Shown here: positions 36,066-58,703 of the stretch, in pieces
Numbering within the stretch: position 1 is the first letter of the stretch
Layout: every line of letters begins with the position of its first letter
NCBI GenBank assembly: GCA_963843575.1
Contig: CAWJKZ010000017.1
Span: forward strand, 224,001-288,000
Length of the DNA stretch: 64,000 bases
Source: an uncultured Acidobacteriota bacterium
Lineage (GTDB): Bacteria; Acidobacteriota; UBA6911
Direction of reading: 5' to 3'
The notes under the pieces: model-generated
The model's input: the letters and a program-made list of their open reading frames with translations, nothing else
What the model was told of the DNA's origin: nothing
Database searches by the model: none
Program-made: the position numbers and the translations under genes

Positions 36066-38183
36066 TTAGCGTTCTTCGACGATGGCCAGATCCCACGGGG
36101 CGAGAGCCATGGACGTCCCGCGTTCGACCGGCCGCTCGGTGAGGAGGTCGAGGCCTGAGGCGTACGGGTACGCGAACTTCTGTGCTTGCCCGGAATAGTT
36201 CAGATAAAAGTGAAGGTTCTTCCCGGCCGCGGACACCGCGTGCTTGACACGCACCGCAGCAGGCAGCTGCTGATCCGGACCGGTCAGCCCCGCCCGTGCC
36301 AACACCTCGGCCATCACCCTGAGCTGAAGCGTCGGGGAGAGGACGGTCCCCTCGTAGGTCAGGGTGCCCTTGCCGAACTGGTTGCGCGTGACGGCGGGGT
36401 AGCGGCCGAAAAATTCGTGATCGTAAACAGCCACGGCGGCCGCGCTCTCCGGAATCAGGAATTCGGCCCACCCCGACACCCGGTTGTCGGCCCCGGCCTG
36501 GTAAGGATCCCCTTTCAACGCGATCGGTTCTTTCAGATTTGAGAATTCCTGGTAGCGGAATCCGGCCGCCTCACGCAACGGTCCGGGGGCGATCGCCCAG
36601 CGCACCGTCGAGTGCTCGTCGGCAAACCCGCTCTTGAGCGACATCACCACATGACCTCCGGACCTGACGTAGTTCGAAAGCCGGACCAGGAGGTCGTCCG
36701 AAGCGATGTAAAGCGGGGGCACGACGAGCAGCTTGTACTGTTCCAGATTCCGGCTTTGCGGGAAGACGAAGTCGACGCCCGCGTTCAGCTGGTACAGCGC
36801 ACGATAGAACTGGTGCAGGATGCTGAGGTAATCGTCCTGGTCCGAGAACGGCATGAAGCGGATGCCGTTGAACGAGTCGATGCTGTACAGGATCGCCACG
36901 TCGCTCGTGCGCCGCAGGTTGGCCAGCCGGGGGCCGAGCTTTTTGAACTCGCTCCCGATTCGGCTTACCTCGGCGTACGCCCGGTTGGGCTCGAGGTCGT
37001 GCGAGAGCACCCCTTTCCAGTAAGTCTCCTGGCCGTAGTGGAGCGAATGCCAATGCCAGTAAGCAACCATTTCGGCGCCGCTCGCGACATGGCTGAAGGC
37101 GCTGAGCCTCAGCTGCCCGTCGTAGGGGGGGTACTGCGTCCGCGAGTCCCAACCTATGGTCTGAGCATTCGTCTCGGTGACCAGGTAATTCTGCTGCTTC
37201 AGCGAGCGGCACAGGTCCCCGGAAAGGCTGATGGGGAAGCCGTCGAGTTCGTCCTGCATGGCGTGGTAGGGATTGACCGCCGTGATGTCGAGGTGTTGTG
37301 CGATGTCCTGCTCGTCGATGTTGGTCCGGATGCCGCCGACGAAATTGTGCATTATGAACTGGCCGGGTTTGCGGTACTCGGACACGATGCGCGCCTGCCA
37401 GGCCAGGAAATCGGTCACGATCTTCCGTTGGAAGCGCTCCCATTCCAGCTTGTAGCCCGGGTTCAGGATTCCGTCGCGGGCGGGAAACTCGTCCCAGCCG
37501 TTCACGAGCTGCCCCCAGTAGGACAATCCCCAGAGTTGATTGAGACGCTGGGGAGTCCCGAACTTCCGCTTGAGGTACTCGACGAATGCGATCTGGACGT
37601 TGCGCAGCGGCAGCCCGTTCGGCCCCGTCTCGTTGTCGATCTGGTAACCAATCACCGCCGGATGGTCCTTGAAGTGCGACACAACCTGGCGGATGACGCG
37701 CTCGGCATAGAACAGGTACGCGGGGTGCGTGATGTCCATGTTCTGGCGCGGTCCGTAAGCCCCCGGCGGCCTGGCTCCGGGATAGCTGGGCGACGTGGGA
37801 TCGGACAGGGGCGGAGCCGTCGTCAGCTGCACCACGACGATCTCGGGATGTCTGGCGTAGAGCCAGGGGGGGATGGAGTAGGTCGGGGTGCCCAGGATCA
37901 CTTTGATGCCGGCCCGGTGCAGCCGGTCGAGGATGCGTTCCATCCAATCGAACCGGAATTCACCGTCGCGGGGTTCCCAGCTACTCCACGTGGATTCGCC
38001 CAGCCGAACCACCGAGATGTTGGCCTTCTGCATCAGCTCCACATCCTTGTCGAGCCGCTCGTAGGGCATGTACTCGTGGTAGTAGGAGGCGCCGTAGAGC
38101 AACGTGTCGATGCGGGCCTGCTGCGCCGCCAGGGGCAAGCACCCGATGGCGAGGGACACAAGGACGAATGTCGTTCGACCCAT
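36066..38183 (-). CDS. Secreted beta-galactosidase (GH42-like)
   Basis: Signal peptide; YGASYYHEY, GESTWS, GTPTYSIPPWL, QIDNE, VTETNAQ, YWHWHS; trimerisation domain. Confidence 0.9.
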   Translation of the reverse strand: MGRTTFVLVSLAIGCLPLAAQQARIDTLLYGASYYHEYMPYERLDKDVELMQKANISVVRLGESTWSSWEPRDGEFRFDWMERILDRLHRAGIKVILGTPTYSIPPWLYARHPEIVVVQLTTAPPLSDPTSPSYPGARPPGAYGPRQNMDITHPAYLFYAERVIRQVVSHFKDHPAVIGYQIDNETGPNGLPLRNVQIAFVEYLKRKFGTPQRLNQLWGLSYWGQLVNGWDEFPARDGILNPGYKLEWERFQRKIVTDFLAWQARIVSEYRKPGQFIMHNFVGGIRTNIDEQDIAQHLDITAVNPYHAMQDELDGFPISLSGDLCRSLKQQNYLVTETNAQTIGWDSRTQYPPYDGQLRLSAFSHVASGAEMVAYWHWHSLHYGQETYWKGVLSHDLEPNRAYAEVSRIGSEFKKLGPRLANLRRTSDVAILYSIDSFNGIRFMPFSDQDDYLSILHQFYRALYQLNAGVDFVFPQSRNLEQYKLLVVPPLYIASDDLLVRLSNYVRSGGHVVMSLKSGFADEHSTVRWAIAPGPLREAAGFRYQEFSNLKEPIALKGDPYQAGADNRVSGWAEFLIPESAAAVAVYDHEFFGRYPAVTRNQFGKGTLTYEGTVLSPTLQLRVMAEVLARAGLTGPDQQLPAAVRVKHAVSAAGKNLHFYLNYSGQAQKFAYPYASGLDLLTERPVERGTSMALAPWDLAIVEER

Positions 38184-38269
38184 CTCAACTCCTCGATGTC
38201 GTGTACCGCCATATTCGCACTCATCCCCCCGCAAAGAAACCCTCATCCGTCGCTGAAGGTCATCCCGCG

Positions 38270-38296
38270 GGGCAGGGAGGAGCCGCCCCCGCCCAC
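38270..38296 (-). repeat. 27-nt REP element (variant B)
   Basis: Reverse complement is GTGGGCGGGGGCGGCTCCTCCCTGCCC. Confidence 0.6.
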
Positions 38297-38450
38297 CACT
38301 TCGGCCGCGACTTGCAGCGGCGGTTCCGGGTCGTGCGCCGGCCCCGGGGACGACGACCGAAAAACGCGCCAACCCCCCCGGAGTTTGCCGGTTTGCGGAA
38401 CAGGAAGTTGGTATATCATGCGGCTTCTGCGAAATCCCAGGGAGCCGGTA

Positions 38451-40292
38451 ATGGGCACAAAGTTCAGCACGTGCACACTCTTGCTGCAGAACGCGCCCCC
38501 ACGATCCCACCTAACCAGCCTCGACTGGTTGATGATCGCCATTTACTTCGCAGTCCTGCTCTGTGTCGCCTGGTGGGTCGTGCGCAAGAGCAAAGACAAC
38601 GCCACGGACTATTTTCTGGCAGGCCGCAATCTCGGCTGGTGGATCATCGGCGCGTCGATCTTTGCTTCAAATATCGGTTCAGAGCACGTGGTCGGGCTGG
38701 CCGGCTCGGGGGCAACCGATGGCGTGGCGATGGCCCACTATGAGCTGCACGCCTGGTGCCTGCTTGTGCTCGCGTGGGTCTTTGTCCCGTTCTACGCGCG
38801 CTCTCTCGTGTTCACCATGCCCGAGTTTCTCGAGAGGCGATTCTCCACTCCTTCGAGATATGTGCTGTCGGTGGTTTCCCTGATCACCTTCATCGTCTCC
38901 AAGATCGCGGTCGGAATCTTCGCAGGCGGCGTTGTCTTCAGTACCCTGCTGCCGGAACTGCGCCTCAACATCTGGGGAGTGGAGGTCGACAGCTTCTGGA
39001 TCGGCTCCATTCTCGTGATCGTCCTGACGGGACTGTACACGATTCTCGGCGGCATGCGCGCCGTTGCCTACAACGACGCCGTGCAGGTTACGGTCCTCAT
39101 CACCGGGTCCGCGCTCCTCACCTTCTATGGGCTCAACAAACTGGGGGGTTGGGCAGAGCTTCGCCACTGGTGCGGGTCGGACATGTTCAACTTGTGGAAA
39201 CCCCTCATTCCGCCCGGCGTGGAAGGCACATGGGCTCCCGTGATGGAACGAGATGCGCTCGGGAATGTCGTAAAACAGGCGTGGTATTTCAACGGACATT
39301 TCCCCTGGCTCGGCATGCTGTTCTGCGCACCGATCATAGGGCTGTGGTATTGGTGCACCGATCAATACATCGTGCAGCGAGCGCTGGGCGCCCCCAACGA
39401 GACAATCGCCCGCCGGGGCAGCATTTTTGCCGCTTTCCTCAAGCTTTTTCCCGTTTACCTCTTCATTATCCCGGGGCTCGTCTGCTTCGCACTGGCGAAG
39501 AGCGGCAGGGTACCGGAACTGCAGAGCATCCTGATCGCGCCCGACGGCTCCGTTACAAAAGAAGCTCAAGGGGCGTTCCCGCTGATGGTGCAATACCTGC
39601 TGCCGCCGGGCCTGCGCGGCATCGTCGTGGCCGGCTTGCTCTCGGCACTGATGGGATCGCTGGCGGGTGTGTTCAACGCCTGCTCGACCCTCTTTACCGT
39701 GGACATTTACGAGAAATGGAAACCCAAGGCCACCCAGCATGATCTCGTACGCACCGGCCGCATCGCGACCGCCATCATGGTCCTGATCGCCCTCGCCTGG
39801 ATCCCGGTGATCAAGGGAGCTTCAGGCCTGTACAACTACCTGCAGGCCGTTCAGGGCTATCTCGCGCCCCCCATATTCGTGGTCTTCTTCTTCGGCGTTT
39901 TCTTCAAAAGGCTCAACGCCAAGGGCTGTTTGTGGGCCATGCTCGTAGGCTTCGTCCTGGGTATCTTCCGGATGCTCGTGGATACACCGGTCACGCTTGG
40001 GCTGAAGGGCTTCGAGAACGGCTACGAGCCCGGCTCTTTTCTCTGGATTGTCAACAACATCTACTTCCAGTACTTCAGCGTGCTGATTACCGTCGTCTCC
40101 GCCGTGGTGATGGTGGTGGTGAGCTACATGACCACTGAGCCGGACTATGAGAGGATCAAGAGCCTGACATACGGCACGATCACCCAGGAGGACCGCAAAC
40201 TCACACGTTTGAGCTGGGATTGGCGGGATCTCCTTTCGTCGGCAGTGGTGCTCGCCTGTATCCTGGGAGCTTACCTCTACTTCACAGGCTAG
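38451..40292 (+). CDS. Sodium:solute symporter (SGLT-like sugar transporter)
   Basis: DYFLAGR, FASNIGSEH, TMPEFLERRF, GGMRAVAYND, WYWCTDQYIVQRAL. Confidence 0.93.
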   Translation: MGTKFSTCTLLLQNAPPRSHLTSLDWLMIAIYFAVLLCVAWWVVRKSKDNATDYFLAGRNLGWWIIGASIFASNIGSEHVVGLAGSGATDGVAMAHYELHAWCLLVLAWVFVPFYARSLVFTMPEFLERRFSTPSRYVLSVVSLITFIVSKIAVGIFAGGVVFSTLLPELRLNIWGVEVDSFWIGSILVIVLTGLYTILGGMRAVAYNDAVQVTVLITGSALLTFYGLNKLGGWAELRHWCGSDMFNLWKPLIPPGVEGTWAPVMERDALGNVVKQAWYFNGHFPWLGMLFCAPIIGLWYWCTDQYIVQRALGAPNETIARRGSIFAAFLKLFPVYLFIIPGLVCFALAKSGRVPELQSILIAPDGSVTKEAQGAFPLMVQYLLPPGLRGIVVAGLLSALMGSLAGVFNACSTLFTVDIYEKWKPKATQHDLVRTGRIATAIMVLIALAWIPVIKGASGLYNYLQAVQGYLAPPIFVVFFFGVFFKRLNAKGCLWAMLVGFVLGIFRMLVDTPVTLGLKGFENGYEPGSFLWIVNNIYFQYFSVLITVVSAVVMVVVSYMTTEPDYERIKSLTYGTITQEDRKLTRLSWDWRDLLSSAVVLACILGAYLYFTG

Positions 40293-46696: not shown

Positions 46697-47794
46697 CTAT
46701 TTCTTCAGAATCCGCAATGCGTTATCCCGATAGAGCTTTTTGAGAGTGGCATCGCTAAGCCCTACTCCGGAGAGGGCAAATCGCGTAGTTTGCCACATCC
46801 CAGGCGTAGAAGTGTTCGTCGAGCGTCTCCCAGATATGGAATGAATTCCGATACATGGGCAGGCTGTAACCCTGGTCGGTACCCCAGACCAGGCGGTCAG
46901 CGTACTTCTCCATAAACTGCTTTGCGAACCTGGGGATGGCTGCTACATACGCTTCTCTCTGGGATACGTCGGCATACAGGTTTGGATACTTATCAAGCAT
47001 TCTTCCGAGCTGATTCAGATCGTATGTCTGGTTCATGAAATGGCAGGCGACGAAAGTCGTTCGCGGATGTTTTTTCACGGCGCTTTCCAGGATAGCTCCC
47101 ATTTCTTCAAGGTTCAAAATGTTCCGGCTTATTGTCGAGCCGGAAATTGAGTAGCCTCGAACAACAGGTCATTGTGATCGTCCATCGGTTCGTACATCCA
47201 TTTCGGATCTCCCATGTGGACGTTGATCGGCAGTTTGAGGTCGGCAAGTTTTTCCAGAATAGGATCCATGCGCGGATCGTCGAGGTGCATTGGCGGGGTT
47301 GTACCGCGCATATCCGGCTCCCTTTATCACTGATCTCGCCGACGCCCTTGGCGCCGAGCTTCACGCATCTTTCCAGTTCAGCTATGGTCGAAGCAGGGAC
47401 GTAGCCTGAAAAATCGAACCCGCACCACAGTTCGATGCGATCGGGGTATTTTCCGAAAACGGCCGCCAGGTCATCGAATGCCTTCCCTGTACCGCAAAAG
47501 AGAATGGTTTTTTGAATGCCACATTCATCCATGTTTTTCAACAGCTCGGCAGCGGCCTTATTCAAATCGCCGCCTCCGCGAGGGGCATGCATGTGCATGT
47601 CAATGGCCGGATACTTGGCCTTTAGAACCTGGGTCTGGGGCGTCTTAAAAATGGATTGCGGTCTGTAATCCTTCAGAAGCAGCGTGTCCTGCAATCCCGG
47701 CTGCTCTGAATTGACGTTGCTGCGCCTGCGAAACAAGAATGATTACAGAACACAACAATGAGAATAGTAAACTTTTCAATAGTAGTTTTTTCAT
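46697..47794 (-). pseudogene. Secreted amidohydrolase-family protein, multiply frameshifted, lower GC
   Basis: MKKLLLKSLLFSLLCS signal at 47794; LLLKDYRPQS, IDMHMH, GVGEISDKG, INVHMGDP, FVACH, WGTD, LKKLYRDNALRIL in successive frames. May be assembly error rather than a true pseudogene. Confidence 0.65.
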
Positions 47795-48138: not shown

Positions 48139-51100
48139 TTAGGTGCGGGGCGGCGATTCCTCCGCCCCCTGCCGCAGTTCCCACGGCCGGCCCGAGACGA
48201 GGTGGGTCCCGCACACGGTGACGGCTTCGTTCAGCTCGTCGTCCGTCAACGCGGTGACGCGCAGGCCCGTGATGCGGGCCAGCACCGCGTCGAGACTCGA
48301 TCCGTCCAGGAGCGCCAGCGGCAGCAGCGCCTTCAATCCCTCCCAGTCCGAGTTTTCCGGCGGCCACGACCAGCGTGCGGAAGTAGAGTCGAGGAATGCA
48401 ATGCGCATTTCGCGATCGGACATGGCGGCGAATTCATCGAGCACGAGCTTGAGGCTGGGCACGTCCCGCGCCAGCCAGCCCCGGCAGGCTTTGACCAGGC
48501 GCACCCGGTCCTCGCGGAACTTCGGGTCTCGAACATTCGACGCCCTCTTCAGTGCCAGGTCGGCCAGAAGCTCGACCCGGCCCTCGGGGTTGCCGATTTC
48601 AATGCAGCGGTTAGCCAGCGCCATGTAAGCCATGCTGATGTAACCAGAGTAACCGCTGGCAAGGGCTTCGGCTTCCCCTATCGCACAGAACGCTTCGGCT
48701 TTCTTGCCCTGCCGAAAAAGAGCGGCGGCGCGAGCGGAGCGTTCCCGCATCCTCGTGCCCCAGCGGTCGCAGGCGGCGCGTGCCTTCCCGAGATAGGCGG
48801 CCAGGACCGGGGCTTCCCGGTTGCGGCGCCCGCATTCCGCGAGCAGGACTGCGGCGAGGTCAAAAGTAAAAGTGACCCCTTCCCCCTGCATCGCGGCGCG
48901 CAGAATGCGACGGAGTCTCTGTCGGGCCCACGCCGGATCGGGCACCGCAAGCACGGCGAGGCTGATTGCCAGGAACGCGATGTCGCGGTAGCGAGGGTAG
49001 GGGTTTCTTTCGGCAATATCCAGCGCGTCCTCGATTTGGCCCCGGTCGGCGGAATCCCCGGTCAGCTTGCGCAGCGGCCCAAAATCCATGTCGAGACGCC
49101 CCGTGCGCTGCTCGTCCACCAACGAATCGTCGCCGTAGCCCGTGTCCGGGAGCAGCCCCTGCAGAACCTGCATCCTGAGGCTGTTGATGCGTTCGTCGAG
49201 AGTCGCGATTAGTTCCTGCCGCTTCCGGGCGTCGAGTGGTGCCTCTTTGCAGCACTCGACCAACTTTCCCGCTTCGGGACCGCGGCTGAACGCTCCGATC
49301 CAGACGGAGGGGGCGTCCGCGGTCGGCGCGAGGATGCGGGCAGCCCGGGTGAGCAGTGTCTCGCACAGGGGAAGAGTGTGGCTTGGCTGGATCGCGCAGG
49401 TCGCGGTTGCGGCCGTTACCGCCTCCTCGAGCTTCCCGGCCAGCGCCGCCTCCCAGGCAAGATAGGAGAAGACGACCCCTTCCCAGGCTCCCGAATGGCA
49501 CAGCAGCCTCGCCCAGGCGAGCGCTTCGGTAAAATCTCCTCTGTCGACGCACTTGAGAAGGTCCTCGGTGAGGCTGGCTCTGGGAGCCGTTTCACGGTAG
49601 GCGCCTGCGCAAGCCAGGGCCTTGACGGTGTGGTCCTGCTCGAGGGCGACATGCAAGGCCAGCCGCAGATCTCCGAGGGTGTTCTCTGGACGGCCGAGGA
49701 TCTCTCTCTGGGCCGCTCGGAATTGCGGATCGAGCACGAGGGAGTAAAGCTTGTCGAGCTGTCCGGCCGCCTTGAGGTGCTCGGCGTAGTGGCTCAGCGG
49801 GTAACTGCTCCGGTTGCGTTTCCAGTCGGCGCAGTAGGCCAGCAGCCTGTCCCGATACACCTCGGTTTTGATGCACTTGCGCATGTACTGGCGCAGGCGC
49901 GGGTGGGCGAGGGCATAGCCATGAGTGTCGTTGCCCACGACGAAGCGGCGCACCCGCTGCAGGATGTCCTCGAAGAAGTCCTGCCCCCAGTCGTTTACGA
50001 GGCTCGGGTTCACAGCCTCGAGATCCGACCTGAACATCGGGCCAAAGCAGGCCGTGAGGGTCCCGAAGAGATCGCGCGCCGGGGCGTCGCCGGCGAGTTG
50101 CTTGATTTCCTCCCACCACTGATCGAGATAGTTCGCCAGCCCCTGCGGTTGCGCGGCGAGATTCGCAGCGGTCAGCCGGCCATCGGCCAGGTCCTCCGCG
50201 AGCAGGCGCATGTAAAACGGATCGCATCCGAGGGTCGGATCGCCCTGGTACGAGGAGATCCGCACAACCTCGTCCAGCGCCGCGGAGTCGTCTGCGACCG
50301 CAGCGGCGGAGGTCCCGGCGGCACGAAGGACCGCGGAAACATCGGCGGTTGTCAGGCCCCCAAGTGGCAGGTGTTCCGTCTGGTGCGGCGGCATGCCGTA
50401 AATCGCCGACCAATCCTGACCCACATCCCGGACTGTCAGGATCAAGTGGAGCCTGGCCGGAAGATGGCGGCTAAGGTACGGCCTCAGCTGCCAGGTCGTG
50501 ACCTCGTCCAACCCGTCGATGACCAGGACGCGCATGCAGTCCAGGTACTCGTCCAGGAGCTTGTGATACAGCGCCCGCAGTTCGTGGACCTTTTCGGGGA
50601 TCGGGTAGGTGTGAGCGTGCCACTGGGCCATCTGCTGCACCACGTTGCGCAGGAAGAACTCCTCGCCGAGGCTTCCCGTACCGTAGAGAGGAGTGAAAAA
50701 ATGGTAAGCGAAAGCCTCCGGATTACGTTTGACGATATTGGCCATCAGGGCCGTTTTGCCGAATCCGGCCGGGGCGGTGATCATCAGATACCCCCCCGCG
50801 GGCCCGGCAGCGAATTCTTCCACGCGGGCCTGGATGTCTTCGCGGCCCGCGAAAAGAGCGGTCCGGTCGTCCAGGAGGGGGGCGAAGACCTCGCGCAGGG
50901 CTGGCTTGACCGGTGAGTACCGTTCTTCGGCCGCCGCAACCGGGGGCCCGATGCGCCACTGGTAGTGACAAACCGCGATGTCCAGGGCGAAGCGGAATGG
51001 CCTCTCCGGGCAGTCCAGCTGCTCGCGCCCGGCGGCGGCTGCGCGCTCGAAGGAAAGGACCCCGGGGTCCGTGCGTCCCGCGGCTTCGGGGACCCCCACG

Positions 51101-51636
51101 GGCAGCACCTTGCTCTGCGCGAAACCCGTGCATTCGACCGTGATGTAAGCGCCCCCGTCGACCAGCTCCCGCAGCGGGCCTGGATCGGTCATCGGCCCGG
51201 CCTGGAACAGTTCGCGCTCGTGCCGGTCGAGCGCGTTCCAGTCGCGCAGGCCGTGAGTGAGTGAGACGGCGGCAAACGCGTGCCCCTCGGTCACCACCAG
51301 AACTGGAAGCAGCTCGTTGCCCAGGCAGAGACCGCAGAAAAGTACGGCGAGGTCGAGGCACGTTCCCTCGCGGGGCGCCTCCAGGACGTCGGCAGGCCGG
51401 CGGATCGGCTGCAGGGCATCGGAGGGATGATACATCTCGGCGGCATAGCGGATCTGCTTCGCCAGGAGAGCACCGTAGATGGCTTCGACCAGACGGCGGC
51501 GTCCCTCGGGCTCGGCTGCCAAGTCCAGGCGGTTCACGGGCAAGCGGAGTAGTGTGACGGCGTCAGGCGTCACGAAACGCGCCAGTCCCCTCTCATCGAC
51601 CTTCGACCATTCCCTCGGAAACTCGGCGACCGGCAC
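48139..51636 (-). CDS. Transglutaminase-like (Cys-His-Glu) domain + STAND/NACHT-like NTPase + helical C-terminus
   Basis: EGTCLDLAVLFCG, EGHAF, VECTG; FAGRE, Walker A APAGFGKT, Walker B VLVIDGLDE, LILTVR, PFYMRL, YALAHPRLRQY; AAGGAG RBS before GTG. Confidence 0.85.
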   Translation of the reverse strand: MPVAEFPREWSKVDERGLARFVTPDAVTLLRLPVNRLDLAAEPEGRRRLVEAIYGALLAKQIRYAAEMYHPSDALQPIRRPADVLEAPREGTCLDLAVLFCGLCLGNELLPVLVVTEGHAFAAVSLTHGLRDWNALDRHERELFQAGPMTDPGPLRELVDGGAYITVECTGFAQSKVLPVGVPEAAGRTDPGVLSFERAAAAGREQLDCPERPFRFALDIAVCHYQWRIGPPVAAAEERYSPVKPALREVFAPLLDDRTALFAGREDIQARVEEFAAGPAGGYLMITAPAGFGKTALMANIVKRNPEAFAYHFFTPLYGTGSLGEEFFLRNVVQQMAQWHAHTYPIPEKVHELRALYHKLLDEYLDCMRVLVIDGLDEVTTWQLRPYLSRHLPARLHLILTVRDVGQDWSAIYGMPPHQTEHLPLGGLTTADVSAVLRAAGTSAAAVADDSAALDEVVRISSYQGDPTLGCDPFYMRLLAEDLADGRLTAANLAAQPQGLANYLDQWWEEIKQLAGDAPARDLFGTLTACFGPMFRSDLEAVNPSLVNDWGQDFFEDILQRVRRFVVGNDTHGYALAHPRLRQYMRKCIKTEVYRDRLLAYCADWKRNRSSYPLSHYAEHLKAAGQLDKLYSLVLDPQFRAAQREILGRPENTLGDLRLALHVALEQDHTVKALACAGAYRETAPRASLTEDLLKCVDRGDFTEALAWARLLCHSGAWEGVVFSYLAWEAALAGKLEEAVTAATATCAIQPSHTLPLCETLLTRAARILAPTADAPSVWIGAFSRGPEAGKLVECCKEAPLDARKRQELIATLDERINSLRMQVLQGLLPDTGYGDDSLVDEQRTGRLDMDFGPLRKLTGDSADRGQIEDALDIAERNPYPRYRDIAFLAISLAVLAVPDPAWARQRLRRILRAAMQGEGVTFTFDLAAVLLAECGRRNREAPVLAAYLGKARAACDRWGTRMRERSARAAALFRQGKKAEAFCAIGEAEALASGYSGYISMAYMALANRCIEIGNPEGRVELLADLALKRASNVRDPKFREDRVRLVKACRGWLARDVPSLKLVLDEFAAMSDREMRIAFLDSTSARWSWPPENSDWEGLKALLPLALLDGSSLDAVLARITGLRVTALTDDELNEAVTVCGTHLVSGRPWELRQGAEESPPRT

Positions 51637-51760
51637 CGCTTTCTCCTTGACCCATCCTGCACTTCCCCGCCAAGGGGAACCTGTCGAGTGCAGAGGGTGC
51701 GGAAAAAAACATCGCCGCCGCGTCGCGGACTGGGCGTCCCCGTGGCGGCGTCATTCTCTT

Positions 51761-53209
51761 TTACTGCTTCAGAATCTCGAATATGTCGTGCACCGCAGGG
51801 GGCGATGCGGGACCCGCTTTCCGCGTGCCGACCTCCACCCGGTACAGCCCGGGGGGCATCTGGTCACGCTCGAGCACCCACTCGCCGTCCAACTCCCGGA
51901 ACTCCGTCTTCACTGCCGGTCCGCCCGCGAGAGGCTGGATCCGGGCACCCATTCCACCCGGGTCGTCCCCATAATTCACGAGCCGAGCCCGCATGAGCAC
52001 CGGATCCCCCGCCACATAGATATCCTCCAGGTCGAGGGCGATGGCCGCCCCCTGCTCCCTGTCCGCACTGATCTCCGGGCCGCGAATCGCCCCCAGGCCC
52101 GGGATCTGCATCTGCCTGAGCCGGTTCCGGAGCTCGTTGAGCATCTGCAGATTGTTTTGCAGGCACCCGTGCCGTTCGGGTATGTAGCTCTCCCTGTACT
52201 CCGCGGAAAGTTCGATCGGAATGGCCGAGAGGTACGGAACTGTCCCGTCGCCGTCGTCGAGCAACGGGTCGATCCCGGACGGGAGCGTGCGGCTGGTCAC
52301 GACGCGCCCATTTGCTAGGCAAGCCGATTGCAGAGTCGGCTGGCGGGTCCCTACAACCGGCACGATCCGGTATCCGGCCTTGGCGTACTCCGGATCGCCC
52401 TGATGGAGCGACACGGCCTGCTCGATCTCCCTGTGAAACTCCAGCGCGTCCTCCGCCTTCTCCCTGGCGATTCCCGGAACGCCGTCCGTTTCGGCGATTC
52501 TGTTGACGGAGCCCCCGCACTCGAGGACTTTGTAAATCGGGAGCAACTGGTAGACCGACGTGAAGGACCGCATCATGTCGGTCAGATCGAGAAATAGCTT
52601 CTTGTAGCCGTTGGCGAGGAAGTCGACGGCGTTCACGGAACCGCGATACGGGGTGCCAAAGGTCACGAGCGCCCTGCAGTCCCTCCAACCCTCCAGGACT
52701 TCCAGGTAGTAGCGTGCCACCAGCCCGCCCATGCTGTGCGCCAGAAAGATGACCTTCGCATCGGCGGCACCGCTGTGCTTGCGCCAGAGGGGGAGACGGT
52801 CCCGGATGAAGGCCTGCAGGCGCCTCGCCGAGCAACGATTGTCGCGGCGCCAGTCGTAAGGGAATTCGAAAAAATTGGCGGGATTGCCATTCTCGATACT
52901 GCCGGCGACAACCTCGAACTCACCTGCGACGAGCCTCGACATCCCGGAGTACCCGTCGATCTTCACCAGGCCGGGGACCAGGTGGGCGTCGGCCATCACC
53001 CGGACCGCCCGCACCCCATCCCCGAGGTCGTCAATCGCCGGATCGTCCCCTGAGAGTTTCAACCGCTGCAGCGCCGACCCCAAGGTGACAAGTGCGCTCC
53101 ATGCGGCCTGACCCGAGATTGCCCAGAGATCTTTCCCATCTTTCTGAAGCACGCTTCCCGTGATCCCCGGCAGCAGAATCACGAGGTCCCGCATGCGCAA
53201 TTTGGCCAT
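51761..53209 (-). CDS. LCAT/PGAP1-like alpha/beta-hydrolase (lipase/acyltransferase) with C-terminal beta domain
   Basis: ILLPGITGS, FPYDWRR, AHSMGG nucleophile, FGTPYRGS, DGDGTVP, ERHGCL. Confidence 0.9.
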   Translation of the reverse strand: MAKLRMRDLVILLPGITGSVLQKDGKDLWAISGQAAWSALVTLGSALQRLKLSGDDPAIDDLGDGVRAVRVMADAHLVPGLVKIDGYSGMSRLVAGEFEVVAGSIENGNPANFFEFPYDWRRDNRCSARRLQAFIRDRLPLWRKHSGAADAKVIFLAHSMGGLVARYYLEVLEGWRDCRALVTFGTPYRGSVNAVDFLANGYKKLFLDLTDMMRSFTSVYQLLPIYKVLECGGSVNRIAETDGVPGIAREKAEDALEFHREIEQAVSLHQGDPEYAKAGYRIVPVVGTRQPTLQSACLANGRVVTSRTLPSGIDPLLDDGDGTVPYLSAIPIELSAEYRESYIPERHGCLQNNLQMLNELRNRLRQMQIPGLGAIRGPEISADREQGAAIALDLEDIYVAGDPVLMRARLVNYGDDPGGMGARIQPLAGGPAVKTEFRELDGEWVLERDQMPPGLYRVEVGTRKAGPASPPAVHDIFEILKQ

Positions 53210-53284
53210 TGGTCCTGCCTCCTGGACGCCGATTAACGCGGAATTCCCGGGGGAATCCGTGGTTTGTCCGTTCGCGGTTTCATG

Positions 53285-54160
53285 TCAGACCAGGAGCCGG
53301 TACCCGGGATCCAGTTTCTGGTATCCGATCAGGATCTCGTGGATGTTGTAGGGGTGGGTTTCTTCACCGCTCAGCGTGTTGCCCACGACCTGAAACACGT
53401 GTTCGATCCCTTGGGCGTCGTCGATGTCCACATCCGCCATGAACTCCAGCGTCTCCGGTTTGCTGAAGAATGTGACCTGCAGGTTTCCGTAGCGCTCCAT
53501 CGTCTTGAAGCTGTCTGCCAGGCAGAATCCGGGTGGGGGAACGTGCAGGGTTCCCGGAACTTCATGGAACAGATCCGCGGCGATGCTGTTCTTGACCTCA
53601 TCGCGCAGCTCCTTTTCGACACGCGCGAAAAAACGGTCGCCTCGAATGCGAGTCAGGCTGGCCACAAAGGAAAAAGCGTCACGCCCGTTGGGAAACCGGG
53701 TCGCCTTCATCCTGGAGTAGATATTCAGAAGCCCGGCCTTGCGCAGGTCGTCCAGCGCGGAATAGAGTGCCGGCCCGGCGAGGTCCCCGGTTCCCTCGAC
53801 GACCGACCGCGCGAGAACCTGCTGCAGGTCCGCGGCGCAGGACGCGTAATCAGGAAACTCCGCCTTGATGACACGTCGGGGGTCCACGGGCAGCGTGATG
53901 GCGTAACGAACGGTCTTCCCCTCGCTGACCTGCACGAAGCGGCTCACCGGAAGGTGGCGCATCGGAAAGACGCCCACGCGGTAGCAACCGTTGGGCGGGC
54001 ATTCCAGGTCCCGGATACGCAGCCTTTTTGTTGCCTGCACATCTCTTGCCTGGGTCACGTTGCCGAGCAACGTGTGGGTCAGCGAGACATCCAGCCGGTC
54101 GTCCGGCCGCTCTCCGTTCACATCTGCGAAATCCAACAGCAAGTCGCCTTTGTTGGTCAT
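53285..54160 (-). CDS. Hypothetical protein (291 aa)
   Basis: GAGGG RBS; N-terminal beta-sandwich-like region; C-terminal LH..PPGF..DSFKT..YGNLQVTFF, DVDIDD, EH, THPYNIHE. Confidence 0.7.
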   Translation of the reverse strand: MTNKGDLLLDFADVNGERPDDRLDVSLTHTLLGNVTQARDVQATKRLRIRDLECPPNGCYRVGVFPMRHLPVSRFVQVSEGKTVRYAITLPVDPRRVIKAEFPDYASCAADLQQVLARSVVEGTGDLAGPALYSALDDLRKAGLLNIYSRMKATRFPNGRDAFSFVASLTRIRGDRFFARVEKELRDEVKNSIAADLFHEVPGTLHVPPPGFCLADSFKTMERYGNLQVTFFSKPETLEFMADVDIDDAQGIEHVFQVVGNTLSGEETHPYNIHEILIGYQKLDPGYRLLV

Positions 54161-54236
54161 CGATCCCTCTGCGATCGGCGGCACGCTTCGATCGGGAAGC
54201 ACGGCCCTGAGTCGCCGCAAACGGCCGCCGCCTTAC

Positions 54237-57200
54237 TTATGACACTCTCTCGAGCACGTAGTTCAGAACCATCGAATTCTGCCGGGGCTCAAGGTAGCCA
54301 CACAGCGCGGGCTGGAGAACTGGGTCCCGGAGCCACAGGGCCGAAGGGGCGGACACCCACCTGCCGAGCATCGTCTGGTCGTCCACGATCCGCATCTCCT
54401 CCGCTATGCCCGCCGAAGCCACGAGTCTCGCGAACTCGTCGGTCCAATAAGTCGGGCCGCCTGCAGGGCCGAGTCCAAAGCTAAACCTCGCTTCTGCGCC
54501 GTTGGCTGTGGGCAGGAATCTGACGTGGAAGGCGACCGGGTTGACCTGGTTGAGCAGGCTCACGTCCGGCCTGGTCAAAAAGAGGATGTGCCCTCTCCAC
54601 TCTCCCGCGATTTCGGTCGGTTTCGGGACGCGTGCCCGGTCGCCGGTGAATATGGCCAGGTGATCGGGGACGGACATGTTCTTGAAGGGATAGTTGTGCC
54701 GCGCCATCACGAACGTCGCAAACTCGAGACCCGTCGGAAACGTGCCCAGGTGCATGACCCCTATACAGTCGTTCTCGCCAACCGCTTTGATGACGTCGTA
54801 GACCATCCGGTACGGCGCATTCGTGTATGTCAAAAGCAGGACGTCGTCTCCTGCCTTGACGAACTTGCGGTTGTCGTCTGGGTAGCGCAACTGCTCGACG
54901 ACGGGCCTCCCGGGCAAGCACTGAAGCTCGTAATTGACGACGTAGCCTGAAAGCGACCCGCTCCGCATCCCGTCGAAGCGCTTCCAGAAACTCCCCCCGG
55001 TGTATCGCTCGGCGGGGGGGCGTTCACCCAGCGCCAGGGCGGCGGCACGCAGGCGTTCCTCCCACCCGAGCAGGGTGTCCCGCGCGAACGATCCTTTCCA
55101 GAAAGAGTCGCGCAGGATGCGGCGATTCGCGTAGTCGATCCGGACGCTCCCCCGGTTGAGCAGCGTTTCGAGCGGCCGCGTAGGGGTCTCGCGCATGATG
55201 GTCTGCAGTTCCGGCGTCGGGCGGGTGCTGAAATAGTCGGGGATCTCGGCCCCGCGCAGGACCGCCTCGCGCACTTCTTCCGCGGCAAACCCGCCCTGAG
55301 CGCTGAGGGGATCGTACTCACGCATCACGAACTGGTTGGTCAACGCCAGGAACCGGAGCAGGCCGCGCGCTTTCAGGAGGGGATTGTCCGTGCCGGTCAC
55401 CTCGAAGGAGCGCAGAAAGGCCGCGAAGCTGCCTGCCGCCTCGATGTCTTCGAAGGTCCGGAACCTGAGCAGCCCGGAGCCCAGGCCGGCGCCGGATGCC
55501 GTGTCGGAAAGCCGGCAGTAGAGCGTGGTGTAGTCCCGCAGGATTTCGCGAATCCCGGCAATGCCGCCGCGCTTGTTCTTCTGCATGTACTTGCGTCCGT
55601 GCAGCAGGTATTCCGTGCGTGCGGGATCGCGGAAATAGACGTGATAGAGCATTTCCGCTTCGCCGGTCGCCGGGTTGATGCGCAAGTAGTTGAAGTAGCT
55701 TTTGTCCGCATTGATCTCGAAGGTTGCGGGGCCCTGTCCTCCGAAGTCGCCGAAGTGGATTGTCCCCCGCATGCGCGCTTCGTGTTCGGGGCTTTCGAAA
55801 AATTCGTTCAGGTCGCGCACCGTCATCCGGACCTGGAAACTGCAGGGCAGCTTCTGCTCCGGCCCCGAGACCCTGGCTTCGATTGCCCCATCCCCTTCGA
55901 ATCCCGGCGGAGGCAGAAACCCGGGGAAGTAGTGGCCGGTCATTTCCTCGTCGAACGTCATGCCCAGCCCATCCGGGAGCCGGACATCGAGGAGTGGGGC
56001 CAGGAAGGGGGAGGGCGGCGGTTTGTCGGGGCCGCTCCTGCGCAGCGTGTAGTAGAAGGAAAACTGCGGCGCTCCGCCGGCGCCGGACTCGAGCTGGAAG
56101 AGGCCGATGGAGCTCGGTCCAAACAGCTGCGCGAGTCCCGGGGGAGACGCCGTGGTGTACTTTCCGACCATGAGATCCGGACCGATCGCGCGGATCTCGT
56201 CGTGGAAGGGGGTAAAGTCGTTGAGTTGGAAGTGGTCGTGCGCGAACACGGGTTCGGCCATGCCCTCGAGCAACCCGAGCAGCTGGTATCGCGTTTCGAG
56301 GCGGCCGTCTGGTTTCAGCTCGAAATTCAGGTACGCCACGACGCCGGTGTTCGCCGCGTTGGAAACCATGCGCATCTCCCACAGGCCGGCGAGCTGCTCT
56401 TTGGCCGGGGCCGGCGCGCTCTCGTAGAGACGGCGGTGATCTGCCACCGTCGCCTCGTCGAGGCCGTAAACCCGTGTCATGGGGAAGGTGAAGAGCCGGA
56501 GACCGTTCGGGAATTCGCCCAGGTACACCCTGCCGATCAGCAGTTCCTCGTTGACGATCTTGAACACATCGTAGAAACCGCGCCAGGGATCGTCAGGATA
56601 GCGCAGCAGGATGTACTTGCCCGGTTCCAGGGTGGCGGTCCTGGTGGTGATGTGGATCTCCTCGAGCGTGTTCCTGGCGCGAATGCGGCCGTCCGAATCG
56701 GATGTCTCGCCCGTGATGCCCCCGGCAGTGCGCGTAAACCGCTTTTTAAACCCGGCGAAGAATGCCGTCGAGAACTGGTTCAGGATGTGGCGTCGCGGGA
56801 AGAAACCCTTCCAGCACGTGTCATTCCTGATAATGCCCCGATCGCCATCGATGCCCACTTCGCCGCCGTTGACGATGGTCGCGACACCCAGGCTCTCGAC
56901 GCGGCTGAAGATACGCTCCAGGTCCGCTTCCTTGTAGTTGAGCACCTCCAGCGGATCGAGCCCGGGCACGGTGATCCGGGCAGGGCGCTCCGGATAAGCT
57001 TCCCCCCCGACCGAACGGACGAGCCTGTCGGCGATCCGCTCGGAGAGGGCCGAGATCGTGAGGAACGGGTTCACCCCCAGTGCCGAGGGGATAAGTGAAC
57101 CGTCGGCAACGAACAGCCCCGGGTGGATGCTGCCGTCGCCGGCGAACACCCTCCCGAACTCGTCGGCCGCCCCCTGCATGTAGTCCTCGCCGAGGGGGCA

Positions 57201-58703
57201 GCCGCCGAGCGGGTGGGCAGTGATCAGGTTGCGCACCGTGACAAAGTTCCACAACGGGTTCGTCATGAAGCTGCCGCCGAGGGCGCGCGCGTGGCGCCGG
57301 ATTTCCTCGTTGATGAGGGTGAAGACCGGCTGGCGCCCGACATTGTCCCAATCGACGGCCACGTGCTCGTCCTGTTCGAGAAAACTCCTTTTCAGGTGAA
57401 GCATCCCCTTGGCGTCGTCGCGCCCCATGATCAGGTAGAGCATGGTGTGGTTGAGCGCGTTGTGTTCCTGGTAGACATCGAAGACGTTGTCGCGCCGGCG
57501 CCGTTCGAACTCCTCTTTTTCGTCTCCCACGTCCATGTCCTCGGCGCCTCCGAGCGCGGCCACGGAGCCGAAGGCGAGCATCGCCGATCCCACGTAGGCG
57601 CCTGGGAACGAGAAGTCCTCGACGGCGATACGCTGTTCCAGCGGCAGGCTGGAATCGTACTTGACGCACCCGACGATGCTTGGCCCCGGTGCATTGCCCT
57701 GCTTGCGCCACGGGTGCATGGGGTCGGCGCCGAACCCGAGCGTGTTGACCTGCTGATCCGCGTTGTAGGCCAGGGCGAAGAAATCGCCGTTCCCCGTGAA
57801 CTGGGTGCCGAGTTTCGGCGAAAGCGACAAGCCGTGCGCTTCGGATTTCAGCAGGATCTCAACCGTACCCAGCGAGCCTGCAGCCAGGATCACGTTGGCG
57901 GTCTCGAGACTGAATTTCTCGGTGGACGCCGGTTGGAGGAAGCGCGTGCCATGAATCCGCCAGCCTCCGCCCGGCAGACGCTCGACCCGGTCAACCTGCA
58001 TCCGCGTAAATATGTCGGTGCCGTTTCGGTGCGCCACGGGCAGGTAGTTCATATAGAGAGTGTTTTTCGCACCCGTGTTGCACCCTGTGACGCAGTCGCC
58101 GCAGTCTATGCAGGGAGTCTGGTTCCGGCCGTGCGGATTCACCCCGTCTATGTCGAAATTGACCGTGAGATCCAGGCCGAAGGCGCGCCTGCCGATTTCG
58201 CGGGCGCGCTTGTCGAGGGCTTTGACCTTCAACAGGCAGTCCTGCTGGTCCGGATTCGAGCGCGGGTGGGGACGCGCGGCGAGCATTTGCCTCGCCTTGT
58301 CATAGTGCGGGAGCAGTTCCTGCAGCGTGATATTGCGCGGCCAGGCGACCTGGTCAAAAATGTCCGCATCGGGCACGATCGCCACGTTCGCGTTGATCAG
58401 CGACGTGCCGCCCAGACCGGACCCCTTCAGTACGGATATGTCGGGGAACACCAGGAAATCGTAGAGCCCCAGCGGATTGAGAAGCGGATTGCGGACGGCG
58501 GAGAGGATCTCGTTCAGCCGGTCCGGGAATTCGCCCGAGACCCACTCCCTTCCGCGTTCGAGCAGGCAAACGGAGGGCTTGGGAGACGCGTTGGATATCC
58601 GGGCAGCCGTGATCGCGCCACCATATCCAGACCCGATCACCGCAAAATCGTATTTCTGACGCCTCCGGCTCCAGTCCTTTGACAGGCGTTCGTCTGCGGG
58701 CAT
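54237..58703 (-). CDS. Cholesterol-oxidase-like GMC oxidoreductase with ~900-aa C-terminal extension
   Basis: VIGSGYGG, LLERGRE, GSGLGGTSLINANV, CIDCGDCVTGC, AAGSLGT, AHPLGGC, ADGSLIPSALGVNPFLTI. Confidence 0.88.
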   Translation of the reverse strand: MPADERLSKDWSRRRQKYDFAVIGSGYGGAITAARISNASPKPSVCLLERGREWVSGEFPDRLNEILSAVRNPLLNPLGLYDFLVFPDISVLKGSGLGGTSLINANVAIVPDADIFDQVAWPRNITLQELLPHYDKARQMLAARPHPRSNPDQQDCLLKVKALDKRAREIGRRAFGLDLTVNFDIDGVNPHGRNQTPCIDCGDCVTGCNTGAKNTLYMNYLPVAHRNGTDIFTRMQVDRVERLPGGGWRIHGTRFLQPASTEKFSLETANVILAAGSLGTVEILLKSEAHGLSLSPKLGTQFTGNGDFFALAYNADQQVNTLGFGADPMHPWRKQGNAPGPSIVGCVKYDSSLPLEQRIAVEDFSFPGAYVGSAMLAFGSVAALGGAEDMDVGDEKEEFERRRRDNVFDVYQEHNALNHTMLYLIMGRDDAKGMLHLKRSFLEQDEHVAVDWDNVGRQPVFTLINEEIRRHARALGGSFMTNPLWNFVTVRNLITAHPLGGCPLGEDYMQGAADEFGRVFAGDGSIHPGLFVADGSLIPSALGVNPFLTISALSERIADRLVRSVGGEAYPERPARITVPGLDPLEVLNYKEADLERIFSRVESLGVATIVNGGEVGIDGDRGIIRNDTCWKGFFPRRHILNQFSTAFFAGFKKRFTRTAGGITGETSDSDGRIRARNTLEEIHITTRTATLEPGKYILLRYPDDPWRGFYDVFKIVNEELLIGRVYLGEFPNGLRLFTFPMTRVYGLDEATVADHRRLYESAPAPAKEQLAGLWEMRMVSNAANTGVVAYLNFELKPDGRLETRYQLLGLLEGMAEPVFAHDHFQLNDFTPFHDEIRAIGPDLMVGKYTTASPPGLAQLFGPSSIGLFQLESGAGGAPQFSFYYTLRRSGPDKPPPSPFLAPLLDVRLPDGLGMTFDEEMTGHYFPGFLPPPGFEGDGAIEARVSGPEQKLPCSFQVRMTVRDLNEFFESPEHEARMRGTIHFGDFGGQGPATFEINADKSYFNYLRINPATGEAEMLYHVYFRDPARTEYLLHGRKYMQKNKRGGIAGIREILRDYTTLYCRLSDTASGAGLGSGLLRFRTFEDIEAAGSFAAFLRSFEVTGTDNPLLKARGLLRFLALTNQFVMREYDPLSAQGGFAAEEVREAVLRGAEIPDYFSTRPTPELQTIMRETPTRPLETLLNRGSVRIDYANRRILRDSFWKGSFARDTLLGWEERLRAAALALGERPPAERYTGGSFWKRFDGMRSGSLSGYVVNYELQCLPGRPVVEQLRYPDDNRKFVKAGDDVLLLTYTNAPYRMVYDVIKAVGENDCIGVMHLGTFPTGLEFATFVMARHNYPFKNMSVPDHLAIFTGDRARVPKPTEIAGEWRGHILFLTRPDVSLLNQVNPVAFHVRFLPTANGAEARFSFGLGPAGGPTYWTDEFARLVASAGIAEEMRIVDDQTMLGRWVSAPSALWLRDPVLQPALCGYLEPRQNSMVLNYVLERVS

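Follow-up and report, generated by a model that had tools for sequence, protein, structure and literature searches.

An NLR-like protein with a predicted transglutaminase-fold domain and an adjacent LCAT-like lipase as a probable two-gene conflict module in an uncultured Acidobacteriota bacterium

A 64,000-nucleotide stretch of an uncultured Acidobacteriota genome (assembly GCA_963843575.1, contig CAWJKZ010000017.1, positions 224,001 to 288,000; the whole stretch is called the window here) encodes, on its minus strand, an NLR-like protein at 48139-51636 and, directly upstream of it, a lipase-type alpha/beta-hydrolase at 51761-53209. Together, these two genes are probably a conflict module with an anti-phage, abortive-infection role, of the "sensor-protease plus latent effector" type. 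The reading that we prefer, and to which we give a somewhat better than even chance, is that sensor-driven oligomerisation of a NACHT NTPase activates a transglutaminase-fold thiol protease, which then licenses the adjacent LCAT-like lipase. The elements concerned are the following:

48139-51636, minus strand: NLR-like open reading frame (ORF), open for 1165 amino acids (aa) from a GTG
50944..51612, minus strand: N-terminal transglutaminase/papain-fold domain (the N-domain), residues 9-231, delimited by model, VIA-align, Foldseek and conservation
49867..50874, minus strand: NACHT-type module of the STAND (ATPases for signal transduction that carry numerous domains) NTPase class, residues ~255-590, by Pfam NPHP3_N, NACHT and AAA_16
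48142..49866, minus strand: C-terminal all-helical solenoid resembling tetratricopeptide repeats (TPR), presumed sensor, residues ~591-1165, by model
51637..51760, minus strand: spacer of 124 nucleotides (nt) from hydrolase stop to NLR start, exceeding the gaps of most relatives
51761..53209, minus strand: partner hydrolase gene, a 482-aa LCAT/PGAP1/DUF676-like alpha/beta-hydrolase of lipase or acyltransferase type

In the proposed mechanism, the helical C-terminus of the NLR-like protein would bind a trigger, after which the NACHT NTPase would oligomerise and bring the N-terminal Cys-His-Glu domains together as active thiol peptidases. These peptidases would cut the co-encoded LCAT/PGAP1-like lipase, possibly at Arg376 in the linker before its C-terminal domain, and the freed lipase would attack membrane lipids, leading to cell arrest or death. 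We infer four parts of this scheme: that the lipase is proteolysed, where it is cut, which lipid it attacks and that the pair serves in defence. In bacterial immunity, the switching-on of death effectors through cleavage by sensor-fused proteases is coming to be seen as a general principle, with parallels in inflammasome, caspase and gasdermin signalling.

The N-domain gene and the lipase gene occur together across genomes. Scanning with the N-domain alignment, at one genome per species, yielded 78 loci, mostly from Cyanobacteriota and otherwise from Actinomycetota, Planctomycetota and Chloroflexota, which were compared with the window's hydrolase by tblastn. A hydrolase homologue is present in 75 of these loci; 70 of the 78 have it as the immediate upstream gene in the same orientation, at an estimated distance of -16 to +265 nt. 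In the five other positive loci, the hydrolase is adjacent and divergent (L008), separated by a 613-nt gap (L069), 5.6-6.6 kb off (L012 and L043) or a fragment (L074). The three loci without a match include two with less than 500 bp of upstream DNA (L032 and L076) and one with 1857 bp (L026). When whole genomes were searched, all five contained a single close hydrolase copy, adjoining an N-domain gene. This conservation of the lipase gene upstream makes the N-domain more likely a licensing protease than a terminal effector. The original prediction for this ORF, made from the sequence alone, had assigned the effector role to the N-domain itself; its thiol-enzyme fold and retained triad bear up well, while the lipase upstream, which had been overlooked, favours the licensing role.

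What follows the N-domain, in contrast to what precedes it, is highly variable. Among 54 representative N-domain proteins, Pfam identifies NB-ARC (8), NACHT (6), nSTAND1 (5), iSTAND (5), AAA_16 (9) and nSTAND3 (2), along with Ig/ASH arrays (5-7), FGE-sulfatase domains (2) and beta-propellers (2), and the PIN domain known from the TPR-GreAB-C-PIN system is present in two very long N-domain proteins. In the 52 loci with enough sequence for a comparison, the 400 residues that come after the N-domain sort into 16 clusters unrelated to one another. Furthermore, 21 complete N-domain ORFs are short, just 242-432 aa long; the ten genes scanned that come after such short forms encode nSTAND3 (2), NACHT/NPHP3_N (2), a WD40-rich protein (1), a weak nSTAND5 (1) or nothing recognisable (4). 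The N-domain and hydrolase genes travel together as a cassette while the sensor changes. In the protease-effector defence modules of Evans et al. 2025, a conserved effector gene adjoins a protease domain carried by varied sensors, and this arrangement is found here too.

Some loci depart from the simple pair in their layout. In Nostoc sp. 106C (G401, the genome of L002), two N-domain genes encoding proteins of 630 and 1403 aa lie 8 kb apart with one hydrolase (C71:72385-83169), so that two sensors may share one effector; the spacing at L012, where the hydrolase is 5.6 kb upstream, resembles this. A Rhizobium johnstonii conjugative plasmid (NZ_CP140847.1, L111 4532-10630) carries the hydrolase (477 aa, named "hypothetical protein" in RefSeq), an N-domain plus NTPase protein (651 aa) and then an 890-aa protein with no Pfam family, which may be a detached sensor; an IS91 transposase is nearby.

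For the reverse test, metagenomes were searched with the hydrolase alignment; this produced 80 loci, 27 of them with a match covering at least 350 residues. The N-domain lies just downstream of the hydrolase in five of these 27, and clan-CD proteases take that position in six of the ten scanned downstream ORFs that lack an N-domain. These ten ORFs are:

L116, L117, L126: Peptidase_C14 ORF downstream of the hydrolase
L122 (5293-7524; also TCAD7 and DUF7363), L125: CHAT ORF downstream of the hydrolase
L121: weak Peptidase_C25 ORF downstream of the hydrolase
L119 (5385-6515): TCAD7 and DUF7363 ORF downstream of the hydrolase, cut by the contig end
L113, L136: downstream ORF without any family
L127: HsdM methylase ORF downstream of the hydrolase

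At the seven caspase-type and TCAD7 loci, the hydrolases show 42-47% identity to the window's hydrolase over most or all of the length of the latter, and they share all catalytic motifs (PGxxGS, HSMGG, GDGTVP and the His) as well as the C-terminal domain where complete. On a quick unrooted tree of 85 hydrolases, partner type (transglutaminase versus caspase) requires two changes, with two long branches making the details of that tree unsafe. The pairing of one lipase family with either a clan-CD or a transglutaminase-fold partner is the strongest argument that the N-domain acts as a protease on, or with, the lipase. In addition, the TCAD7 (ternary-complex-associated), DUF7363 and CHAT domains found downstream link this family of lipases with the vWA-MoxR ternary systems that Kaur et al. 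2020 (PMC7159879) described. As described in passages of that paper, caspase domains in NTP-dependent conflict systems always neighbour an alpha/beta-hydrolase gene. Evans et al. 2025 (PMC12642450) show that a caspase-like protease cuts an alpha/beta-hydrolase at two Arg-Gly sites and thereby activates it, and that the fragments are toxic.

The hydrolase itself looks catalytically active, because its Ser-Asp-His triad and oxyanion loop are invariant. Its Pfam matches are LCAT (E 9e-14; 51.9 versus 21 bits), PGAP1 (4.4e-6; 27 versus 24.3) and DUF676 (4e-4), and its atlas neighbours are LCAT/PGAP1 lipase clusters. The oxyanion loop is PGITGS at residue 14, with Ser159 in HSMGG, Asp321 in GDGTVP and His347; PG..GS and the three triad residues are conserved without exception in 66 aligned hydrolases, and the triad also in an alignment of 68. 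After a variable linker comes a C-terminal domain of about 90 aa. The linker holds an I-R-G-P motif (residues 375-378; window 52076-52087, minus strand). Of the 66 hydrolases, 50 retain Arg376 and 51 retain Gly377, while Gln occurs in eleven and Asn in eleven at the two positions; across both partner classes, Arg is kept at the linker position in 12 of 18 hydrolases. Arg376 is on this basis only a candidate cleavage site. Co-folding of the N-domain and hydrolase from alignments scored 0.00, with controls not run, and weighs neither way.

The N-domain likewise looks active, because Cys93, His119 and Glu168 are near-invariant. These residues lie in GTCLDLA (91-97), GHAF (118-121) and VECT (167-170), the motifs from which a Cys/His/Glu enzyme had been proposed, and the proposal is supported by 159 homologues and a transglutaminase-type predicted fold. 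Among the 159 aligned N-domains, Cys93 is kept in 157 (two have Ser), His119 in all and Glu168 in 158 (one has Asp); Gln76 and Asp95 are also kept in all 159, and Arg79, Arg188 and Asp219 in 157. The family is large, well beyond what chance would give: residues 1-245 match 841 clusters (formed at 50% identity) at E<=1e-3, and 266 at E<=1e-30, in a set of 1.84 billion representative proteins. The domain is N-terminal in 149 of the 150 matches listed, in host proteins of 163 to 2171 aa; the sole exception among them is P0190 (2360 aa), which carries it at residues 201-424.

Structural modelling places the N-domain in a known fold. The AlphaFold2 (AF2) model, built from 50 sequences, has a pLDDT of 93.4 and a pTM of 0.91, and in it helix 93-106 begins with Cys93 and strand 119-129 with His119, while Glu168 comes after strand 164-167, which is the layout of papain/transglutaminase-fold enzymes and makes the three residues a putative triad. 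VIA-align comparison of the model with 48,161 chains returned 8 rows with Z of at least 8 and 37 with Z of at least 5; the top row has Z 9.4 and a root-mean-square deviation of 3.1 Å over 130 residues. Individual Z values are 9.4 for 3kd4, 8.7 for TglA, 8.2 for PeiW, 7.9 for PNGase and 7.5 for LapG, and further rows of the same superfamily include Rad4, TG2/TG3/factor XIII, arylamine N-acetyltransferases, vasohibin and protein-glutaminase. The rows that Foldseek returned from the PDB were all weak (best E 2.5e-3), to 3isr, TglA, CPR-C4, LapG, RavJ, menin, PNGase, TgpA and XPC, the rest being axonemal chains. The N-domain model is that of a transglutaminase/papain-like fold with a near-invariant Cys-His-Glu set.

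Within this fold, the N-domain is a sequence family separate from Pfam Transglut_core and from the LapG-type bacterial transglutaminase-like cysteine proteases (BTLCPs). Transglut_core (PF01841) stays below threshold (13.9 versus 23 bits, E 0.066), as does DUF553 (12.7 versus 20.5 bits, E up to 0.09), and no match to the LapG-family Peptidase_C93 (BTLCP) is listed at E<=10. The only PDB match of the N-domain profile, to MCM2 (E 0.04), was taken as chance. Deamidase or cross-linker chemistry is possible for such a domain, and nothing in our analysis favours either.

The N-domain, the STAND NTPase and the helical C-terminus form the tripartite plan of effector, NTPase and sensor. All the motifs initially quoted for the NLR-like protein are present in its 1165-aa ORF; its start codon could be misplaced by a few residues, as homologues start about five residues further in. 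The NTPase contains Walker A GFGKT (291-295), Walker B LVIDGLDE (371-378, with DGLDE at 374-378), ILTVRD (399-404) and a conserved GYALAHPRLRQY at residues 573-584, which includes YALAHPRLRQY (574-584). With intact Walker A and B motifs it belongs to the STAND class, as expected of an NLR-like protein, and Pfam and related modules make it NACHT-type. Over residues 262-438, NPHP3_N scores above its cut-off (25.5 versus 24.8 bits), and NACHT falls 1.1 bits short of its own (25.6 versus 26.7). The module is 50-60% identical to NACHT modules that bear TIR, caspase, trypsin, CHAT or no N-domain at all and that have TPR or WD40 C-termini; relatives carry PF05729/PF24883. Searched whole against PDB sequences, the NLR-like protein has zero matches at E<=1.

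The C-terminal region had been described as about 550 aa of helical sequence without clear TPR repeats. The helical character and lack of clear TPRs stand, TPR_2 being sub-threshold; the region starts at about residue 590 and is nearer 575 aa. The AF2 model of residues 630-1165 has a pLDDT of 85.4, with 29 helices and zero strands, and disorder confined to its segment 200-219 and last 10 residues. Foldseek relates this model only weakly to TPR proteins (Tom70, APC subunits and IFIT5; E>=7e-3, TM <0.2). The motifs NPYPRYRD (878-885), GVTFTFDL (920-927), DRWG (957-960) and GYSGY (995-999) are located here, and 25 aligned C-terminal homologues agree without exception at Y880, Y883 and R884 and to at least 90% at N878, P879 and D885. 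The C-terminus is accordingly modelled as a diverged TPR-like solenoid with a conserved patch formed by NPYPRYRD and neighbouring motifs. It resembles the sensors of Avs and bNACHT proteins, by analogy with which a sensor role is presumed.

This region was also thought to be a new ligand-sensing module. It does lack any Pfam family at threshold; it is shared with about 30 other NACHT proteins, and so is not unique to the NLR-like protein. A first search (BLASTP over at least 300 residues) found 14 proteins with 26-37% identity to residues 641-1165, and a second found 12 with 33-41% identity to residues 640-1165, P0012 being in both sets; identity to 24 aligned NACHT proteins is 26-42%. All the proteins sharing it are NACHT-type, with DUF4062, a short N-terminus or none. 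Within the retrieved sets, only the window's protein joins this sensor to this N-domain, while P0090 has the same overall plan (33% identity across 91% of the length). The window's genome holds a single N-domain copy, with no paralogues.

A kinship between the N-domain and the N-termini of DUF4011/DUF3320 helicases, which had been put forward with the original prediction, proved sound. The NCBIfam model of the Prometheus protein ProA (NF058533) matches residues 47-231 with E 3.3e-14, over profile positions 159-311 of 1903; at 51.3 bits versus a cut-off of 1500, the NLR-like protein does not reach the ProA equivalog. On plasmids, tblastn found six records with an N-domain match inside a gene annotated "DUF3320 domain-containing protein". 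One of them, a 2212-aa DUF3320 helicase of a Comamonas antarctica plasmid (NZ_CP054841.1, L110 6434-13072), has an N-domain-like stretch at residues ~190-342 (31% identity, E 3e-15; Cys, His and Glu aligned), followed by DUF4011 (397-569), helicase, MTES_1575 nuclease and DUF3320. The transglutaminase-fold domain of this helicase is un-annotated, and no Pfam family covers that part of ProA; the kept Cys, His and Glu suggest a catalytic role for it. Prometheus is described as a single-protein defence validated in Pseudomonas aeruginosa (PMC13700489).

Several points weigh against the reading of a licensing protease. The fold leaves the chemistry unfixed, because transglutaminase-fold enzymes include deamidases, transamidases and acyltransferases, and the arylamine N-acetyltransferase (NAT) family matches the N-domain model at Z 5-6.7 in VIA-align. 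N-domain and hydrolase pairwise distances correlate strongly (Pearson 0.83, a value reached by 0 of 999 permutations; pairs with the same and with different fusion partners differ little, 0.51 versus 0.56), and this correlation is inflated by shared ancestry and is read here only as a sign that both genes move as one. The hydrolase of Evans et al. 2025 (PMC12642450) is much shorter, with cuts at Arg73 and Arg117 and fragments of 8.1, 4.7 and 19.8 kDa. No hydrolase is annotated near the Prometheus-type helicase in the one locus viewed. Finally, the window's locus is no obvious defence island, its neighbours being a GMC-oxidoreductase-like ORF, transporters and a response regulator. PADLOC gave no match for the N-domain, the hydrolase or three upstream ORFs, and no known NLR or Avs model of PADLOC v2 matches the NLR-like protein, for which just two GajB matches (20 residues, E 0.011 and 0.067) were obtained and taken as P-loop noise.

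One rival reading is that the transglutaminase-fold domain is itself the terminal effector and, once oligomerised, would attack host or phage proteins by proteolysis, deamidation or cross-linking, with the lipase in a parallel or accessory role. The domain does occupy the N-terminal slot that TIR, caspase, trypsin and CHAT use on closely related NACHT modules, it recurs in ProA-type helicases, with no annotated hydrolase nearby in the one locus viewed, and passages of Kibby et al. (10.1101/2022.07.19.500537) count transglutaminase-like peptidases as NACHT effectors. We nevertheless regard a terminal effector as unlikely, since it leaves unexplained both the retention of the lipase in 75 of 78 loci across at least 16 fusion partners and the occurrence of caspase-type proteases as alternative partners of this lipase family. 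An acyl-transfer relay, or some other relay that involves no proteolysis, in which, for example, a NAT-like Cys acyl-enzyme and an LCAT-like acyltransferase modify a lipid or protein target, would suit the shared fold of the N-acetyltransferases, among them a Cys-His-Glu one (4dmo), at Z 5.2-6.7, and the fact that the best Pfam match of the hydrolase is an acyltransferase family. Such a relay seems quite improbable given that the best structural matches of the N-domain are peptidases and isopeptidases, and that the alternative partners of the hydrolase are proteases rather than acyltransferases.

Two further explanations concern the role of the pair rather than its chemistry. The genes might have no immune role and form a STAND-regulated lipase system that serves development, stress responses or the signalling of lipids in the filamentous or multicellular bacteria that most often carry them, consistent with the mainly cyanobacterial set of loci, a neighbourhood in the window without known defence genes, and the lack of a close hydrolase orthologue in 400 other genomes sampled from the phylum. 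This is improbable in our view: sensor shuffling, patchy distribution, plasmid copies and one HsdM neighbour are typical of conflict systems, and the N-domain is common to ProA, whose system is reported as experimentally validated (PMC13700489). Alternatively, the N-domain could have no catalytic activity and serve as a docking platform that draws the lipase to the oligomer, as translationally coupled gene pairs frequently form complexes and some transglutaminase-fold proteins (Rad4/XPC, menin) are non-enzymatic. The preservation of Cys, His and Glu in 157-159 of 159 sequences, plus Gln76 and Asp95, makes this very improbable indeed, as inactive relatives normally lose such residues.

Around the pair, the upstream ORFs 53285-54220 (-), 53264-54484 (+) and 54237-58703 (-) and the downstream ORFs of 46755-47736 (-) were set aside as module parts, with no tblastn match in the 78 loci. 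In the phylum sample, 28 of the 400 genomes have a weak hydrolase match (best E 1.7e-22, 35% over residues 49-263), to general lipase relatives and not orthologues. In the quick unrooted tree, the copies closest to the hydrolase of the window are cyanobacterial, and the pair may have been acquired horizontally, though its G+C of about 65% is like that of the DNA around it. The stretch 46755-47736 (-), just downstream of the NLR gene, holds two consecutive ORFs, one of 209 aa (47107-47736) and one of 120 aa (46755-47117), which differ in frame and look like one broken gene; the G+C there is 0.50-0.54 versus about 0.64 around it, and the 209-aa ORF has no Pfam match. The 1488-aa ORF at 54237-58703 (-) has GMC-oxidoreductase domains in its first ~550 residues and no Pfam or PADLOC match in the other ~900 aa. 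Elsewhere in the window, a 1226-aa ORF at 36612-40292 (+) carries a sodium:solute symporter at residues 667-1113, and its unmatched first ~660 aa (by Pfam) may stem from an over-long ORF call.

If the licensing reading is true, the cassette is a widespread one in which a different protease fold stands in the caspase's place beside the same lipase family, and it offers a compact two-gene system for studying the target of the lipase and how the lipase is silenced. A bolder form of the reading is that the N-domain is a fourth, so far unstudied class of "licensing" protease in the immune systems of prokaryotes, next to the trypsin, caspase and subtilisin types, and that on NLR-like and other STAND sensors it activates an LCAT-like phospholipase zymogen by removing the C-terminal domain of the zymogen at the conserved linker Arg; we put this forward tentatively, as possible rather than probable. 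The domain shared with ProA would then imply a proteolytic step in that validated helicase-nuclease defence too, and the function of the N-domain would give the uncharacterised N-terminal domain of Prometheus-type helicases a testable role. Apart from the shared transglutaminase-fold domain, the NLR-like protein differs from ProA in having no helicase, nuclease or DUF3320.

Transglutaminase-like domains on bacterial NLRs are already catalogued. The available passages of Kibby et al. (10.1101/2022.07.19.500537) name a "bacterial transglutaminase-like cysteine protease" and a "transglutaminase-like papain-like peptidase" among bacterial NACHT N-termini, and Kaur et al. 2020 (PMC7159879) mention, in the part available, transglutaminase-like thiol peptidases "on rare occasions" in the caspase position of conflict systems. 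Evans et al. 2025 (PMC12642450) use neither "transglutaminase" nor "papain" anywhere in their main text, and our literature search found no paper pairing a transglutaminase-like domain with a lipase, though the supplements of Kaur 2020, Kaur 2021 and Kibby may list such an architecture. Known thiol peptidases of this fold (LapG/BTLCP, PeiW/PeiP, CPR-C4, PNGase, 3kd4 and 3isr) match the N-domain at Z 5.9-9.4 over 118-148 aligned residues, whereas sequence identity is just 8-17%. The N-domain differs from them in having Glu as the third member of its triad and in its extra invariant Gln76, Asp95, Arg79, Arg188 and Asp219.

Lipase effectors downstream of a STAND sensor have a counterpart in the SesB-like lipase domains of fungal NLRs. 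In bacteria, alpha/beta-hydrolase effectors fused to Death-like domains (Kaur et al. 2021, PMC8195603) are, like the window's lipase, lipase-like and presumed to be membrane-directed death effectors; they are fused to the sensor or adaptor, whereas the lipase here is a separate protein coupled to a protease domain. The bNACHT proteins of Kibby et al. and Avs resemble the NLR-like protein in their N-terminal effector, NACHT NTPase and helical C-terminal sensor, but the passages on bNACHT include no tested protein with this N-domain and mention no lipase partner, and the sensor here is a solenoid specific to its family. A close likeness is to LcCaspase/LcHydrolase (Evans et al. 2025, PMC12642450) and the modules of Kaur et al. 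2020 (PMC7159879), in which, as far as the accessible text goes, a hydrolase adjoins a Cys-protease domain fused to many sensors, as here. LcHydrolase, likened to ours by its description only, is about 33 kDa, whereas the window's hydrolase is a 482-aa LCAT/PGAP1-like protein with an extra C-terminal domain. Where those modules have a caspase fold, the window's pair has a predicted transglutaminase/papain fold, with its residues in the order Cys, His, Glu.

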